Below are positions 52,373-58,145 of a stretch of DNA of 64,000 bases, in pieces. The stretch's first letter is position 1, and the number at the start of each line of letters is the position of its first letter. The notes beneath the pieces are model-generated. The model made no database searches, was not told where the DNA came from, and saw only the letters and a list, made by a program, of their open reading frames with translations. A program made the translations under genes and the position numbers. This stretch comes from Candidatus Omnitrophota bacterium (GTDB lineage Bacteria > Omnitrophota > Gorgyraeia > Gygaellales > UBA12090), in assembly GCA_030674475.1 (NCBI GenBank), contig JAUSCZ010000017.1, positions 46,264 to 110,263 on the forward strand, read 5' to 3'.

Positions 52373-52656
52373 ACCATTGCCTCCTTTTTGATAGCAGACG
52401 TAAAATAAGCAGTAATCACGAATCCGTCGCTTTTGGAAACTTCCTTATATATGACAGACAGATATAAATTATTCTTAATCTTTACCGCCGCTATCAACGC
52501 GTTTTGATATCCTTTAACTATAAGATCGGGAGCCTCTATTGTCCGCAGGATTTCATCGTAATATCCCGCCAAGTCGTCATGGTTTTCCACAATATGAAAC
52601 CATCTCTCTACCGTAAGACGGATAGGAACATTATTCTGTGAATATACGATATCCAT
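52354..52656 (-). CDS. DUF4258-like small protein (putative toxin partner of DUF2283)
   Basis: 100 aa with an FVITAYFT C-terminal motif. Overlaps the DUF2283 gene start. Confidence 0.4.
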   Translation of the reverse strand: MDIVYSQNNVPIRLTVERWFHIVENHDDLAGYYDEILRTIEAPDLIVKGYQNALIAAVKIKNNLYLSVIYKEVSKSDGFVITAYFTSAIKKEAMVWQKER

Positions 52657-53734
52657 TCTTTCGGGTATCCGACAATATGTTTATCATCTTCAAGACTTCT
52701 TCAACCTCTATACTTTTAAGGCACTCCTGTCTTCTTGAGCATGGGCGAAGGCGAAACCCGCGGTAACAGGGGCTACATTCTATAGCCTTCCTTAAAACAA
52801 TGTGCCGTGTCTCATCCGGCGGATACGGCCCATACACCTTTGGGTCAACCGGGCCGAAGAAAGAAATGGTTTTTCTTTTTAAAGCTGAGGCTATGTGCAG
52901 GAGGCCGCCGTCGTTTCCGATAAATAAATCCGCCTTGTTGATAATAGCGGCTGATTGGGTTAGCGTGGTTCTGCCGGCTAAATTTATAACCTTGCACTGA
53001 AGCTCTGTTTCTATATTTAAGAGCAAATCCCTTTCCTTTAAATCTCCTAATATTATAACCGTAACTTTATATTTTTCAATGATTTTATTGACTAAAAGGG
53101 CGAATTTTTCCTCGGGCCAGCGTTTGATTTTTGCCTCAATTCCCCAACTTGCCCCTCCGCCGGGTGAAAGCGCGATAACCGGGAAGGAGTCATCAATACG
53201 ATACTCCTTAAAAATGCTTTCCGCGCATTGCTTGTCTTCATCGCTTAGATACAATTCCAGGTCCTGATATTTCGGCTCTATCCCGATTAATTCCAAAAGG
53301 CCGTTATAATATTCCACCACATGCTGGTCTTCGTAGCCGCTTAATTTTACTGACTTGGTTAAATAGATTCCCCGGTTTTTATAGTTATAGCCGATCCTTT
53401 TCCTTATCCCAGCCAGCCATAAAAAGAAGCCAAAATTGGAAGATAAGGATAAATCTATGGCCAGGTCAAATCGCGCTTTCTTTATTTGCCGGATAAAAGA
53501 ACTGAATCCTTTAAGCCATTCTAATTTTGAAACTAATAACAATTGCTTAAAGTCATCCCTCTCGTATATAAATATTTCATTAATAAAAGGATTGTTTCTT
53601 AATAGGGGAGCAGCGCGTTTATTACAGAGAAAACCTAATTTACCTTCTGGAAAGGCGTCTTTGAGGGTATGAATCAGGGGAGTAGTAAATAAAACATCAC
53701 CGATGCCAAAGGGATTAACGATGAGAATACTCAT
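52631..53734 (-). CDS. Glycosyltransferase family 9 (heptosyltransferase-like)
   Basis: MSILIVNPFGIGDVLFTTPL N-terminus; GT9 C-terminal GNDGGLLHIAS. Confidence 0.8.
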   Translation of the reverse strand: MSILIVNPFGIGDVLFTTPLIHTLKDAFPEGKLGFLCNKRAAPLLRNNPFINEIFIYERDDFKQLLLVSKLEWLKGFSSFIRQIKKARFDLAIDLSLSSNFGFFLWLAGIRKRIGYNYKNRGIYLTKSVKLSGYEDQHVVEYYNGLLELIGIEPKYQDLELYLSDEDKQCAESIFKEYRIDDSFPVIALSPGGGASWGIEAKIKRWPEEKFALLVNKIIEKYKVTVIILGDLKERDLLLNIETELQCKVINLAGRTTLTQSAAIINKADLFIGNDGGLLHIASALKRKTISFFGPVDPKVYGPYPPDETRHIVLRKAIECSPCYRGFRLRPCSRRQECLKSIEVEEVLKMINILSDTRKNGYRIFTE

Positions 53735-54040
53735 TCAAGTATTTCTCAATCGTCTGGCCAGCTCTTGGTAGACTTTCATATCCTCTCGTTTACCGATAGC
53801 ATAAATAATTACTTCTTTATTCTTTTGGTCCAGCTCATAGAGGATCCGGTATTTTTTCTGAAAGGAATAAAGTTTTCTGTACCCGGTAAGGTCAAAACCC
53901 GCCTTGTCACCTAAAGGTTTCCCCAATTCCGGAGAATTCGCAAGTTTCTTAAATTGAGCGAATGCCTGCTGTTGAATAGATTTATCCAGGCTTCTGAATT
54001 CTTTTTCGGCTTCAGTTTTCCACTTCAAACTATAAGCCAT
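53735..54040 (-). CDS. RelE/ParE family type II toxin
   Basis: 101 aa. The RILYELDQKNKEVIIYAIGKRED pattern is typical of RelE/ParE. Confidence 0.65.
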   Translation of the reverse strand: MAYSLKWKTEAEKEFRSLDKSIQQQAFAQFKKLANSPELGKPLGDKAGFDLTGYRKLYSFQKKYRILYELDQKNKEVIIYAIGKREDMKVYQELARRLRNT

Positions 54041-54317
54041 ACTGTTCTTGCAGTTTTTCCAGAGAAATTTTCTTGGCGGGGCTGATTTTCCGCTGCTGGA
54101 TCACCTTATAAACAGCTATATGCTCCAGTAATTCTTCCAAGTTTTCTAATTTTTGTTTTATTTTTTCATACCGCGCGTAATCCATTAACACGGCTTCAGG
54201 CGAATTGCGTTTAAAAATGAAAATATCATGCAAGGGGAGTTCATTCTCATATTTTTTGAATGACCTTACCAGTTCTGTGCTACTGATAATTTGTTTTTTT
54301 TCAAAGGTAGTGCTCAT
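54030..54317 (-). CDS. Phd/YefM family antitoxin
   Basis: N-terminal ISSTELVRSFKKY...PEAVLMDYARYEKI pattern; overlaps the toxin start. Confidence 0.6.
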   Translation of the reverse strand: MSTTFEKKQIISSTELVRSFKKYENELPLHDIFIFKRNSPEAVLMDYARYEKIKQKLENLEELLEHIAVYKVIQQRKISPAKKISLEKLQEQYGL

Positions 54318-54430: not shown

Positions 54431-55924
54431 CTAGCGCTCTCTCATATAATCATCATCAAATCTCTTGATGTCGTCTTCTTCTAAGTAATCTCCGGTTTGG
54501 ATTTCTACAATCTTAAGCGGGGTGCGGGCGGGATTTTCCAAGCGGTGCTTTGTTCCTTTGGGAATGTATATACTTTGGTTACTATGGACATAGATAATAT
54601 CCTTACCTCGACTCACCTTGGCACAGCCGGAAACCACTACCCAATGCTCCGCTCTCCTGGTGTGAGCCTGCAGGCTGAGCCGTTTTTTGGGTTCTATCTC
54701 AATCAGCTTGATTTTAAAACCAAGAGCCTGTTTTAAAACCGTAAAGAAGCCCCAGGGACGCCTATCCGTCAGATGCATAATATGCTCTTTGCGGTGGGCG
54801 GATTTCAGTTGCTCCACGATTTTCTTGACCTCCTGGGTCTTTTGTTTATCGCAGACCAATAAAGCGTCAGGGGTATCGGCGATAATCAAATCCTTCAGTC
54901 CGATGGTCGCGATAAACCGGTCTCCCCGGCTAAAGGCGCAAACCCCCTGACTGCCGCAATCCAGAGAATTATCGGGAAGCACATTGCCGCTTTTGTCCTT
55001 GTGTAGTAATTCCTCTAAGGCATCCCAACTGCCCAAATCCGACCAATAAAAGTCAGCCGGCACCAGGGCTATTTTCTTAGAATGTTCCATTATGCCGTAA
55101 TCCACGGAAACCGGCTTGATTTTACCCCAGACCTTTTCTATGTCGTCTTTGGTTTGGATTGACTTTAGCTGGGAATAAAGCTCCGGCATATATTTGGCCA
55201 ATTCATCCCTAAAAACCGAAACCTTCCAAATAAACATCCCGCTATTCCAAAAATAATCTCTACTCCTTACATATTCTTCCGCTTTGTTTAAACTCGGCTT
55301 CTCCAGAAACTTTTGCACCTTGAAACTCTTTAAAAAGTCATTGCGAGGAGCGTAGCGACGAAGCAATCTCCCAGGGGATTGCTTCGCACTTCGTGCTCGC
55401 AATGACGGATCAAGCTGATGCTCTACTTTTATATACCCATATCCGGTTGCCGGCTTATTCGGCTTGATCCCGATAGTTACCAGAAAATCGCTTTCCGCGC
55501 ACTTTAGCGCCCGGTTAACACAACCCTGAAATTTTTTTATGTCCTTAATATAGTGGTCAGCGGGAAATACCGCTAAAACCGCGTCTTTATTTTTTTGTTC
55601 AATCAGGCGCGCGCATAGGCCGATAGCCGGAGCGGTATTTTTACCTTGCGGCTCCAGGATAATATTCTCATCCGGTATGTGGAATTTTTCTATCTGTTTC
55701 TTAAGCTCAAAGAAATAGGCCTGATTGGTGATAAAAAATATCCGCTTTGGCCGAATCAGGCCTTCTAAGCGCTTGACTGTATTCTGAAGCAGGCTTTCCT
55801 TGCCGATAATATTGATAAACTGCTTCGGCTCAAGCTCCCGGCTAAAAGGCCAAAAACGGCTGCCTACCCCGCCGGCTAAAATCAAGCCGTATAAGTTATC
55901 CTGAGAACGCTTTTCTGATGCCAT
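54431..55924 (-). CDS. Mannose-1-phosphate guanylyltransferase / mannose-6-phosphate isomerase (ManC/CpsB-like) with ~20-aa insertion
   Basis: LILAGGVGSRFWP N-terminus and a cupin C-terminus. An extra segment, DPSLRARSAKQSPGRLLRRYAPRNDF, lies between GYGYIKVE and KFLEKP. Confidence 0.8.
   Translation of the reverse strand: MASEKRSQDNLYGLILAGGVGSRFWPFSRELEPKQFINIIGKESLLQNTVKRLEGLIRPKRIFFITNQAYFFELKKQIEKFHIPDENIILEPQGKNTAPAIGLCARLIEQKNKDAVLAVFPADHYIKDIKKFQGCVNRALKCAESDFLVTIGIKPNKPATGYGYIKVEHQLDPSLRARSAKQSPGRLLRRYAPRNDFLKSFKVQKFLEKPSLNKAEEYVRSRDYFWNSGMFIWKVSVFRDELAKYMPELYSQLKSIQTKDDIEKVWGKIKPVSVDYGIMEHSKKIALVPADFYWSDLGSWDALEELLHKDKSGNVLPDNSLDCGSQGVCAFSRGDRFIATIGLKDLIIADTPDALLVCDKQKTQEVKKIVEQLKSAHRKEHIMHLTDRRPWGFFTVLKQALGFKIKLIEIEPKKRLSLQAHTRRAEHWVVVSGCAKVSRGKDIIYVHSNQSIYIPKGTKHRLENPARTPLKIVEIQTGDYLEEDDIKRFDDDYMRER
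55338..55407. repeat. ~70-bp imperfect palindrome inserted in-frame within ManC-like CDS
   Basis: tcattgcgaggagcgtagcgacgaagcaatc-tcccaggg-gattgcttcgcacttcgtgctcgcaatga. The outer 10 bp are perfect and the inner arms imperfect. Confidence 0.7.
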
Positions 55925-58145
55925 TTAACACCTCATCCACTTTAATATTCTCAATACGGTCACTTTCAATTACTATATGTTTATCCCCCACCGGACCCCA
56001 TCTTTTAGCGCGGACCGCGGGCGGACTTTTACGAAAAATTGCCACAACCTGAATTCCTAATGCGGCGGCTAAATGCATCGGTCCGGAGTCAACCGTAACT
56101 AACAATCTACTCCTTTTTAACAAACCGGACAGTTCAAGTAAGCTTGTTTTTCCGGTTAAATTAATTACCGGCAAACCCTGGCAGAATTCGCCGGACCTTA
56201 TGGCTTCTTCCCGGCCGCCGATCAACACAAGCCTATATGCTGTCTCACGCGATAATCTGACACATAGATCCCTGAATTTATCCCTTGTCAGCTCTTTTTC
56301 CGGATTGCTTGACCAGGGATGGATAGCAATGAAATTATTATCGCTTATTCCTAATTCAGCTAATCGGTTATCTGGGAAGTCTGATTGTTTTATTTCTAAA
56401 GTAAAACCGTTGTTACCCAAATCATACACCTCCGAGGAGCAGAAAACTGCACCTCGGAGGTGAAGGTTCGATACGGCCTTCAGCAGTTCAAGGTTATAGT
56501 CAACTTCGTGTTTTAGCCCCAGTTCTTTAATGTCTTTTGTCTTACGATTCAGCAGAAAACCCCATTTTCGGTCGTAACCCGCGCGAATAGGGACACCGGA
56601 CAAAAAACTTATCATGTTGAATTCCTGGGAAGGATTAAAAGCTACAGACAGGTCATAACGGCCACCCTTAAGCTCTTGGCTGAATTTTAATATTTCCTTT
56701 AGTCTATGTTTTCTATTCTCCCAAACTATCAGCCTGTTTATAAAGGTTATACGCTCTGCTATGGGCAAGACATTTTTATCAACCACTAAATCTAATTTGA
56801 CCTCAGGATAACTTTGTTTCAATGCGCGTAACGCGGGGATAGTGAGCAAAAACTCTCCGAATCGGTCATTCCTAAATGCCAGGATGTTGTTTGTTCCCAT
56901 GAGTAGGGGCGGGTTCGAACCCGCCCCTACCTTTAGTGCTAATGACAGTCCGGCAATATACCAAAACATCACCGCGACTACCGAATAGTAAAGACTGCTT
57001 TCAGTGAGGCCGTTAACTAAAAAGGCGATCAAACAGGCAATCAAGGAGAGCGAAACCGTTTTAAGGTAACTATCGCCGGTTGAACGATAAATATTCTTAG
57101 ATTCCCTAAACAACCAATAAAGAAACCAGAAGAATATCACCAGGCCGGTCAAGCCTATTTCTCCGGCCATATGCAGATAGTTATTATGCGCCTTCATTTC
57201 ATTCAGGGTAATTATGCCGCGGTATTCGGGAAACTCTTTATACTTTTTATAGCTTTTCATGAAGGTATTGGCCCCGACGCCGATTAAAGGATGGGCTTTG
57301 ATCATATTCAAAGAATGCAGATAGACCGCGATCCGGTCGTCGTTACACATAAAGCGTAAGGGGTTATATTCAACTTCTTTGGCCCACTCTTTCACCGATT
57401 TTGGCATAAGAAACGGCGATACAAGCGTAAATATTAGTAAAAGTAAAAGCAGTGCCTTGCTCTTTTTGGCCAAGCCAAAAAACAATAAGACCATATATAC
57501 CGCCAGCAAGGTAGGCCGAGAGTAGGTCAAGGCAATTCCAATTAACACTAAAAGGCTTATAAAAAAGACAGAAATCTTTTTTATCCCTCTAAAATAATAA
57601 AGCCCCAACCCTAGAATCAGAGGAACTATAGCGCTTAAATAAATCCCCAGGATATTGGCGTCCTTAAAGGAAGCCGTGGCCCTAAGCAGGCCAATATTCA
57701 AAATCGGCTGATACCCCCGGATAAAATCCCGGCCGGTTATTACCTGAAAAATCCCGTTAGAAGAGGCCAAAACCGCGCCCAAAATCAAGGCCCATAAAAT
57801 CTTATTTATTTGAGCCTTATCTTTTACCTCCTCTTTAACGATATAAAAGATAAAGATATATTGCGCTAATCTGAATATACCGCCTTTTAATGTGTCATAA
57901 AGGCTTACCGAATTAATCGCGGATAAGCAGGTGATGATAAAGAAAAACAGTAACGGGATGTTTACCGGATCGCCCCTAAACAACCGTTCTCTGATTAAGA
58001 GTTTCTTAAACAAGAAGGCGGCGATTAAAAATCCCATGAATACATTCATCGGGGCCGGAGCAATGGCAATGGAAAAAGGCAATAAAATCACGCACCAGGA
58101 CAATATCCCATCTAGGATTTTTATTAATCTATCTTTGGGAGGCAT
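55896..58145 (-). CDS. Fusion protein: O-antigen ligase/polymerase-like (Wzy_C) membrane domain + C-terminal GT9 heptosyltransferase-like domain
   Basis: The N-terminal ~420 aa are polytopic. The C-terminal ~330 aa carry GT9 features (LTIPALRALK..., VTVDSGPMHLAAALG). Confidence 0.6.
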   Translation of the reverse strand: MPPKDRLIKILDGILSWCVILLPFSIAIAPAPMNVFMGFLIAAFLFKKLLIRERLFRGDPVNIPLLFFFIITCLSAINSVSLYDTLKGGIFRLAQYIFIFYIVKEEVKDKAQINKILWALILGAVLASSNGIFQVITGRDFIRGYQPILNIGLLRATASFKDANILGIYLSAIVPLILGLGLYYFRGIKKISVFFISLLVLIGIALTYSRPTLLAVYMVLLFFGLAKKSKALLLLLLIFTLVSPFLMPKSVKEWAKEVEYNPLRFMCNDDRIAVYLHSLNMIKAHPLIGVGANTFMKSYKKYKEFPEYRGIITLNEMKAHNNYLHMAGEIGLTGLVIFFWFLYWLFRESKNIYRSTGDSYLKTVSLSLIACLIAFLVNGLTESSLYYSVVAVMFWYIAGLSLALKVGAGSNPPLLMGTNNILAFRNDRFGEFLLTIPALRALKQSYPEVKLDLVVDKNVLPIAERITFINRLIVWENRKHRLKEILKFSQELKGGRYDLSVAFNPSQEFNMISFLSGVPIRAGYDRKWGFLLNRKTKDIKELGLKHEVDYNLELLKAVSNLHLRGAVFCSSEVYDLGNNGFTLEIKQSDFPDNRLAELGISDNNFIAIHPWSSNPEKELTRDKFRDLCVRLSRETAYRLVLIGGREEAIRSGEFCQGLPVINLTGKTSLLELSGLLKRSRLLVTVDSGPMHLAAALGIQVVAIFRKSPPAVRAKRWGPVGDKHIVIESDRIENIKVDEVLNGIRKAFSG
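56903..56930. repeat. Perfect 28-bp palindrome gtaggggcgggttcgaacccgcccctac inside CDS at the domain junction
   Basis: Self-complementary over all 28 nt; encodes ...VGAGSNPPLLMG... between the ligase-like and GT9 domains. Confidence 0.8.

Follow-up and report, generated by a model that had tools for sequence, protein, structure and literature searches.

The gene manC in a 64,000-nt stretch of a Candidatus Omnitrophota genome (assembly GCA_030674475.1, contig JAUSCZ010000017.1, positions 46,264 to 110,263; hereafter the window) carries a 70-nt imperfect palindrome within its coding sequence. We consider it likely that this element is a dimer of CGTC-tagged repetitive extragenic palindromic (REP) units, a tolerated in-frame repeat rather than a protein module, and that it was imported together with a patch of recombined sequence. 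As repetitive DNA, the element itself is probably selfish or neutral. Rickettsia provides the best-known cases of protein-coding palindromes in frame, and a genome survey has found others in several further bacteria, including Opitutus and sphingomonads. Both the superfamily and its in-frame behavior have been described, and the element is no new kind of thing. The window presents the same phenomenon in an uncultivated Omnitrophota-like lineage in which its history is unusually clear, running from one ancestral insertion, through stepwise decay in sister lineages, to the probable transfer of an intact element within a recombination patch. The host gene, the element with its parts, and the patch are located as follows, in window coordinates.

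54431 to 55924, minus strand: manC, coding for an intact bifunctional mannose-1-phosphate guanylyltransferase/mannose-6-phosphate isomerase (ManC) of 497 aa; from the open reading frame (ORF), Pfam, alignments and a structural model
55337 to 55406, no strand assigned: the complete element of 70 nt, in which two REP-type hairpin units lie in inverted orientation, their tagged ends pointing outward and their tails toward each other; from sequence and fold
55377 to 55407, minus strand: unit 1 (5' in gene orientation), C-GTCATTGCGAG-CACGAAGTG-CGAAGCAATC; from sequence
55369 to 55376, no strand assigned: spacer between the unit tails, 8 nt, TCCCAGGG on the plus strand; from sequence
55336 to 55368, plus strand: unit 2 (inverted; 3' in gene orientation), A-GTCATTGCGAG-GAGCGTAGCGA-CGAAGCAATC; from sequence
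55291 to 55463, minus strand: the discordant patch in its minimal extent, gene nt 462 to 634, carrying the element; from informative sites

The element reads GTCATTGCGAGGAGCGTAGCGACGAAGCAATCTCCCAGGGGATTGCTTCGCACTTCGTGCTCGCAATGAC. Its outer arms (GTCATTGCGAG and CTCGCAATGAC, 11 nt) are 100% complementary, and its inner arms (CGAAGCAATCTCC and GGGGATTGCTTCG, 13 nt) are 92% complementary. Folded as RNA, the minus strand yields one extended hairpin with a free energy of -41.8 kcal/mol; of 200 dinucleotide shuffles (-20.6 +/- 2.9), none was as stable (z = -7.4). GC content is 57% in the element, 46% in the gene, and 39% in the window. Both units, of about 30 nt each, follow the scheme (C)GTC-ATTGC-GA-(variable hairpin)-GAA-GCAAT-C, ending in a short C-rich tail; the tails of the two are CCC and CTC. 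Unit 1 combines the tag CGTC (55407-55404, minus strand), the lower stem ATTGC/GCAAT, the internal loop GA/GAA, and an upper mini-hairpin, CAC-GAA-GTG, around its interior CACGAAGTG, and its coding product is (P)SLRARSAKQS. Unit 2, with the interior GAGCGTAGCGA, has a degenerate tag, AGTC, and reads LLRRYAPRND on the minus strand. The 8-nt spacer between them equals the shortest among 35 such dimers, whose spacers range from 8 to 60 nt. In its minimal form, ATTGCGAGCGAAGCGAAGCAAT, the unit is free of stops in all forward frames (VIASEAKQ, SLRAKRSN, and HCERSEAI) and has a single stop in one reverse frame (IASLRSQ*). With five of six frames open, an in-frame dimer would simply add about 20 residues to a protein, which may be why the element survives in a gene. 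The minimal unit also holds overlapping GCGAAGC motifs; Hirao and co-workers reportedly showed that d(GCGAAGC) folds into DNA mini-hairpins of unusual stability that contain a sheared G-A pair. The motif is a biophysical one rather than a family of repeats, and we infer its relevance to the unit.

The manC frame runs uninterrupted through the element and encodes ...DPSLRARSAKQSPGRLLRRYAPRNDF..., exactly the peptide that an earlier note on this DNA had quoted. One base and 23 codons of the element are read, giving residues S174 to D196, a basic stretch with 6 Arg and 1 Lys among its 23 residues; the net gain relative to related proteins is approximately 19-20 codons. The earlier note was thus right in placing a palindrome of about 70 bp in a ManC-like gene, in frame and adding some 20 aa. 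However, the length is not the multiple of 3 it had claimed, and the perfect outer arms are 11 and not 10 nt long. The site does not lie between the nucleotidyltransferase core and the linker, as had been proposed, but within the NTP_transferase domain that Pfam assigns to residues 13-310, where it occupies the tip of a beta-hairpin directly before the conserved F-x-EKP motif.

Pfam domains PF00483, PF22640, PF01050, and PF07883 each score above the cut-off, and the NTP_transferase, ManC beta-helix, and C-terminal cupin phosphomannose isomerase (PMI) domains are all intact. Family-invariant positions are likewise all preserved in alignments of 20 and of 57 sequences. Against the Thermotoga GDP-mannose pyrophosphorylase 2x5s, residues 13-174 align with 4-161 of the chain and residues 202-373 with 164-332. 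ManC therefore has about 25 extra residues where its positions 174 and 202 meet 161 and 164. An AlphaFold2 model built from the 57-sequence alignment has a mean predicted local distance difference test score (pLDDT) of 72 and matches 2x5s with a target-normalised TM-score of 0.80. Its pLDDT falls below 50 at residues 175-197, nearly coincident with the element-encoded stretch, between confident strands at 164-170 and 201-207 (block mean pLDDT 84 and 88). The structural check that the note had suggested accordingly found a low-confidence excursion between two confident strands, and the insert is predicted to be an unstructured extension of the beta-hairpin turn inside the nucleotidyltransferase domain. 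The intact ORF and conserved motifs indicate that the enzyme probably tolerates it.

To place the element, genomes (one per species) were scanned with the pattern GTCATTGCGAG-N(4-24)-CGAAGCAATC, in which both anchors are fixed. The search for other copies that the note had called for was productive, and the unit was found in at least 120 genome stretches from many phyla. The matches listed include Bradyrhizobium, other Alphaproteobacteria such as sphingomonads, Gammaproteobacteria, Chloroflexota, Patescibacteria, Bacteroidota, Planctomycetota, Cyanobacteria, Omnitrophota, Zixibacteria, Helicobacter rodentium, and Sporomusa; among them, interiors span 3-40 nt, with 5 nt the commonest length and CGAAG the usual sequence at that length. 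Across 182 units, GTC is preceded by C in 64% and by T in 31%, and the tail past GCAAT is CCA in 49% and CTC in 24%. The commonest layout is the inverted one with tags outward, seen in 35 of 41 close unit pairs. Predicted folds agree from unit to unit, with an unpaired GTC, a 5-bp ATTGC/GCAAT stem, a 2x3 GA/GAA internal loop, and an upper hairpin. Long interiors form strong hairpins of unrelated sequence, for example CCCTTGACAC-AAA-GTGTCAAGGG and CCGGCGTCG-TTGG-ACGCCGG, so that structure is kept and sequence is not. Units often occur singly, and it is this single hairpin, rather than the 70-nt whole, that constitutes the repeat; we refer to the family as the ATTGCGAG type.

Elsewhere, too, units sit within genes, and they are read in differing frames (SLR.., VIA.., and HCE..). 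For example, guaA of a gammaproteobacterial metagenome-assembled genome (MAG) contains an in-frame dimer that accounts for about 22 extra residues relative to the GMP synthase 7sbc. In another MAG, a single unit occupies residues 524-532 of an open frame with UvrA domains, probably an in-frame unit in uvrA. The exact 30-nt left unit of the window (interior CACGAAGTG) was found in 74 metagenome stretches (L128-L201), mostly AT-rich contigs, and none of these 74 loci has a manC context. In many of these stretches the tagged ends face each other, which indicates that dimer layout differs between host groups.

These features point to the CGTC-tagged REP superfamily of Di Nocera, De Gregorio & Rocco (2013, BMC Genomics 14:522, PMC3733652). 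CGTC REPs have an unpaired CGTC tag, often TGTC (with a CCTC variant), stems that nearly always begin A-T, and a CCA-like tail. The published form has an 8-9-bp stem with A-T at the first and second positions and a 4-5-nt loop (PMC3733652). They occur mostly in Alphaproteobacteria but also in other phyla, five phyla being reported, and are frequently dimeric; intragenic in-frame dimers code for 20-30 aa, and an associated transposase gene is absent in that account (PMC3733652). All intragenic CGTC dimers in Additional file 3 of the same paper are oriented with tags outward, as in VIPAKAGI...IPAFAGMT, and uvrA is named as a recurrent host. The authors add that further CGTC classes exist, that their survey missed units with bulges or odd loops, and that the loops of Bradyrhizobium CGTC-1 are variable (PMC3733652). 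The units analyzed here share the unpaired tag (CGTC in unit 1), a stem of the form ATT.../...AAT, a GAAG-type loop, a C-rich (CCA) tail, lengths of 26-40 nt, tags-outward inverted dimers, in-frame intragenic copies, a lack of associated transposase genes among at least 120 loci, and a presence in many phyla. They differ in having a 5-bp stem (starting A-T, T-A, T-A) with a GA/GAA loop and a variable, sometimes nested upper hairpin, in encoding peptides that are not among the CGTC-1 to CGTC-4 lists, and in occurring also, among the matches listed, in Omnitrophota, Patescibacteria, Chloroflexota, Planctomycetota, and cyanobacteria. Judged by its sequence, we class the element as a further member of the superfamily, closest to CGTC-1, a class known here by back-translation of the listed peptides as CGTC-ATTCCCGC-GAAG-GCGGGAAT-CCA.

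Other palindromic repeats are less close. The Rickettsia palindromic elements (RPE; Ogata et al. 2000, as presented in PMC10969869 and PMC3733652) are likewise found in frame in housekeeping genes and thought to be tolerated by virtue of loop position, and RPE-4 and RPE-6 themselves belong to the CGTC REPs (PMC3733652). However, RPE belong to another sequence family and another host phylum and differ in size (about 100-150 bp for RPE-1), and recombination probably brought in the manC copy, the only one in 64 kb. We rejected an assignment to RPE-1 to RPE-10, as the encoded peptides are unlike VIPAKAGI, SFPRKRES, and VIPWLDHGI of RPE-4/6 (CGTC-1/4) and the host is Omnitrophota-like. The element works like an RPE, yet it is not one. 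REPINs (Bertels & Rainey 2011, PMC3116915, PMC3337134) also consist of two inverted REP units in one long hairpin and are short, non-autonomous repeats, but they are built from GTAG-type REPs and accompanied by a single-copy RAYT (REP-associated tyrosine transposase; IS200/IS605-like Y1) gene flanked by REPs. A REPIN-RAYT system was rejected given the tag, CGTC and not GTAG, and the lack of a unit-flanked transposase gene among at least 120 loci.

The history of the insertion can be read from ManC homologues. The nearest (metagenomic proteins of 81-88% identity) are 475-489 aa long, mostly 475-479 aa, and have a 20-residue hairpin at the site with no insert. Omnitrophota-annotated proteins at about 60% identity typically have a 14-residue hairpin, such as KVDGKKNGYIAVEK; by the names of these more distant homologues, the ManC sequence marks its host as Omnitrophota-like. 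The note had placed the insertion where homologues have a short loop, and this agrees with the alignments. Two clades can be distinguished. Clade A, including contigs L001 and L002, which are syntenic with the window, has at this place a 20-residue hairpin of unrelated sequence and lacks any vestige of the element. Clade B, more distant and Omnitrophota-like, has the same dimer at the same manC site, intact or decayed, in alleles that are 69-73% identical to the window's ManC protein. The dimer is intact in the window and in L125 (homologue P0022) and also in L003 (P0019), where the interior of the right unit is longer by 24 nt. L126 (P0023) has kept the left unit alone, L127 (P0021) has a left unit that is truncated and mutated, and in L004 (P0026) the element is reduced to about 24 nt from the distal right unit. 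Because these inserts and that of the window share flanks, CATCAG-CTT-GAT-CC on the left and TTT-TTA-AAG-AGT-TTC-AAG on the right, the copies are orthologous, and one ancient insertion was therefore succeeded by independent deletions. The copies in the window, L125, and L003 differ from each other in tag, tail, spacer, and loop positions, and their stems are unchanged. The note had named a non-palindromic segment of similar length in related taxa as evidence against an insertion, and none was found; the only loops of comparable length held either the same dimer (P0019 and P0022) or a different insert (P0041).

Contigs of clade B are dense in units, with up to 6 per 4.9 kb, and many of these lie outside the manC site. 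L003, the 4.9-kb stretch that codes for P0019, has six units that make five in-frame insertions across three genes: one in the upstream glycosyltransferase family 9 (GT9) gene, one at the ManC N-terminus, the ManC hairpin dimer, and two in the downstream GT9 gene. A unit scan gave the following solo units.

L003, 1328-1367, 1866-1901, 3906-3951, and 4211-4254, strand not stated: solo units
L126, 2106-2149 and 6310-6363, strand not stated: solo units, one of them intergenic

The window's orthologue of the downstream GT9 gene (52631-53734) is without both of the inserts present in L003. Comparison of empty and filled GT9 sites revealed no readable border or duplication, the local sequence differing every time. 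Orthologous units in the downstream GT9 gene, at 4211-4254 in L003 and within gene 4177-4866 in L125, retain the anchors CGTCATTGCGA. and GCAATC around different interiors, CCCTTGACAC..GTGTCAAGGG in L003 and CCCCGCC..GGCGGGG plus CCTGCCTGCCGGCAAGGCAGG in L125. A second in-frame hairpin of the window, at 56427-56462 in the minus-strand ORF 55896-58145, has 16-nt arms (CACCTCCGAGGAGCAG and CTGCACCTCGGAGGTG, 94% complementary), encodes HLRGAVFCSSEV in the GT9 domain directly upstream of manC, and is common to L001. The orthologous site is occupied by a CGTC-type unit in L003 and L126 and by a decayed one in L004, and the hairpin may be a remodelled relic of such a unit. Together, the downstream GT9 interiors and the upstream GT9 palindrome suggest, at the level of sequence, that hairpins are remodelled in place.

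The copy in the window differs from those in clade B in that the gene around it belongs elsewhere. We measured identity in 60-nt bins of manC against L001 (clade A) and L003 (clade B). Identity to L001 is 80-96% (about 90%), except in nt 481-660, where it drops to 63-80%; identity to L003 is about 55-83% (about 70%) outside but 85-91% in nt 481-600. At informative sites, defined as those where L001 differs from the 4-of-5 majority of five clade-B alleles, the window has the clade-B base at 20 of 21 positions in gene nt 462-634 and at 25 of 146 outside (binomial 8e-15). Flanking clade-A-type sites at nt 435 and 642 (window 55490 and 55283) delimit a tract of about 175-205 nt. The patch is partly aligned to the non-homologous loop of L001, but its well-aligned flanks (nt 462 and 618-634) switch likewise. 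A discordant patch around the element indicates that it probably arrived by short-patch recombination and not by local transposition. This is consistent with the scarcity of units around it: no further copy was found in the 64-kb window, even with 2 substitutions allowed per conserved anchor (shuffled sequence gives 0-1), and no unit was found in the clade-A contigs L001 and L002. From the distribution of these sites, the dimer probably moved from a clade-B-like allele into a clade-A gene by short-patch homologous recombination. The dimer would have entered manC once, in an Omnitrophota-like lineage, where it survives either whole or reduced to half-units and stubs. The lineage of the window, which in other respects is part of the sister clade without the insert, would have received it in the patch of about 175-205 nt, by short-patch homologous recombination instead of transposition in its own genome.

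Several observations weigh against our interpretation as an imported CGTC-tagged dimer. The 5-bp stem, internal loop, and variable upper hairpin contrast with the published 8-9-bp stem and 4-5-nt loop, the peptides SLRA..KQS and LLRR..PRND differ from those listed for CGTC-1 to CGTC-4 in the accessible parts of that paper, and unit 2 carries AGTC in place of CGTC. The search for other copies in this genome covered 64 kb only. No independent record of the mosaic allele was found by exact-protein look-up or among the 74 metagenome loci with the left unit, and the patch could be a metagenome-assembly chimera of co-occurring strains, in which reads from an insert-bearing strain were joined into the contig of an insert-free one. 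The shortness of the patch and its boundaries in conserved coding sequence for GYGYI and FLEKP, where k-mers may be shared, would suit such an artifact, as would the missing second record. However, the clades are only about 70% identical in nucleotides around the patch, so few long k-mers would be shared; moreover, the patch matches no recovered insert-bearing allele exactly, differing at several positions from L125 and L003, and the reading frame is kept. We therefore regard a chimera as improbable.

There is also a slim chance, in our judgment, that the hairpin has been co-opted as an mRNA or DNA signal, for example to pause translation, to serve as an RNase or stability site, or to bind a protein. 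The structure is very stable, differences between the window, L125, and L003 spare the stems, the anchors are invariant across phyla (partly owing to the search pattern), and many REPs are held to act as RNA elements (PMC3733652). A signal under selection sits poorly, however, with free decay to half-units and stubs at the same site in sister lineages, with nearest relatives that manage without the element, with copies in unrelated genes and intergenic DNA, and with the absence of an Rfam family match. Much less probable still is a lineage-specific adaptation of the protein, an arginine-rich ManC surface loop that is palindromic by coincidence. While the insert is basic and intact in three lineages, its DNA is that of a repeat family with members in unrelated genes, intergenic DNA, and other phyla, the same unit is read in other frames elsewhere, and the encoded stretch is predicted to be disordered and is lost or decayed in relatives; we consider this explanation largely refuted. 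We give equally little credence to a classical miniature inverted-repeat transposable element (MITE), that is, a deletion derivative of an insertion sequence (IS) mobilised in trans by a DDE transposase through terminal inverted repeats. The length of about 70 nt and the perfect 11-bp terminal inverted repeats would fit, and an IS256-like transposase gene does lie between units in the Patescibacteria contig L046. However, that IS lies within a cluster of REPs and is bounded by inverted ends of its own that are unrelated to the units, no target-site duplication is present at the ends of the manC element (the abutting bases are ...GATC and TTTT...), solo units are common and are the repeat in their own right, and no recurrent gene family accompanies the units across at least 120 loci. 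MITE membership was consequently rejected, the single hairpin being the repeat despite the 11-bp terminal inverted repeats. Where the earlier note had offered a REP-like or MITE-like tolerated in-frame insertion, the REP-like half holds, as a CGTC-tagged hairpin dimer, and the MITE-like half does not.

How CGTC-tagged dimers spread is a matter for speculation. They could move in a transposase-free, homing-like manner with hairpins remade by template switching, an idea that we put forward while thinking it rather unlikely. In this scenario, DNA that breaks, or stalls in replication, because of the long hairpin or cruciform would be repaired from a homologous allele or recombine with it, and a short patch of flanking sequence would be converted along with the element. 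Template switching in the quasi-palindrome would preserve or regenerate the hairpin. Such a route would explain why a patch of 175-205 nt was imported, why the orthologous units of L003 and L125 have swapped interior hairpins, how a perfect palindrome came to be re-made at the GT9 site, and why, as has long been noted, a dedicated transposase is lacking. That unit anchors are near-invariant over many phyla with no visible mobilising enzyme bears on how CGTC-type REPs move. The inserts also have practical consequences, as they lengthen proteins, can be mistaken for loops specific to a lineage, and may lead the annotation and structure prediction of MAGs astray.

The genes beside the units were compared by all-against-all ORF clustering of the at least 120 loci, a limited sampling in which no recurrent partner gene family emerged; the top clusters were ABC transporters, short-chain dehydrogenases/reductases (SDRs), EF-G, and similar housekeeping families. 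Genes bracketed by inverted units in L161 and L173 were set aside as housekeeping by sequence appearance (pyrR, aspartate carbamoyltransferase, and an acetyltransferase). In L046 (JBBTVC010000013.1), the IS256-like element at 555-1840, with its 308-aa Mutator-family transposase, lies between two unit dimers. It was rejected as a partner, since its inverted ends, TAATTAGTACCCTAATGGTTGAT, are unrelated to the units and it interrupts the REP cluster, which makes it a guest and not a parent. Its position within the cluster fits the published view that ISs use REPs as targets (PMC3733652).

Known structured elements were also considered for the palindrome. A hammerhead core was rejected on sequence inspection (CUGANGA is absent), a kink-turn because the internal loop is 2x3 and not 3 plus tandem GA, an integron attC site because the GTT core site is absent, and CRISPR repeats because the spacing does not fit. 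Rfam returned sub-threshold chance matches only, to the SAH riboswitch (19 bits, cut-off 37) and Clostridiales-1, and a full-text literature search for the element sequence gave chance primer matches only.

The ManC hairpin turn (window residues ~166-205) is hypervariable across the Omnitrophota-like homologues P0001-P0120, and repeat-like peptides such as GRRLQAAGRRL, KSKIKNQKSKI, and RPSSVVRRPS are frequent in it. The loop DNA of L001 contains an 11-nt direct repeat, AACCAGAAACC, with a period of 14, and P0041 has other inserts, ..TPTLRSGQAG.. and a second one past KQF. Small insertions seem to be concentrated at this turn. A CCTGCC..GGCAGG hairpin was found again inside a unit of L126 and, by back-translation only, may underlie the peptides PACRQA and LPAGRQ in the ManC homologues P0033 and P0016; recurrence of interior hairpins suggests nested small palindromes.

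Around manC, the window ORF at 55896-58145 combines Wzy_C (O-antigen-ligase-like) and GT9 parts in one frame of 749 codons. The same parts are two overlapping genes in L001 (1803-3053 and 3025-4029), L003, L004, and L126, and the two arrangements may reflect a fusion, a frameshift, or a gene-calling difference. Downstream of manC, at window 53735-54317 on the minus strand, is a pair of small ORFs of 95 aa and 101 aa, probably a toxin-antitoxin pair; the 101-aa gene at the syntenic L002 locus has a ParE_toxin Pfam match. At this position L004 and L127 carry a VapB antitoxin gene, followed in L004 by a PIN-domain toxin gene.

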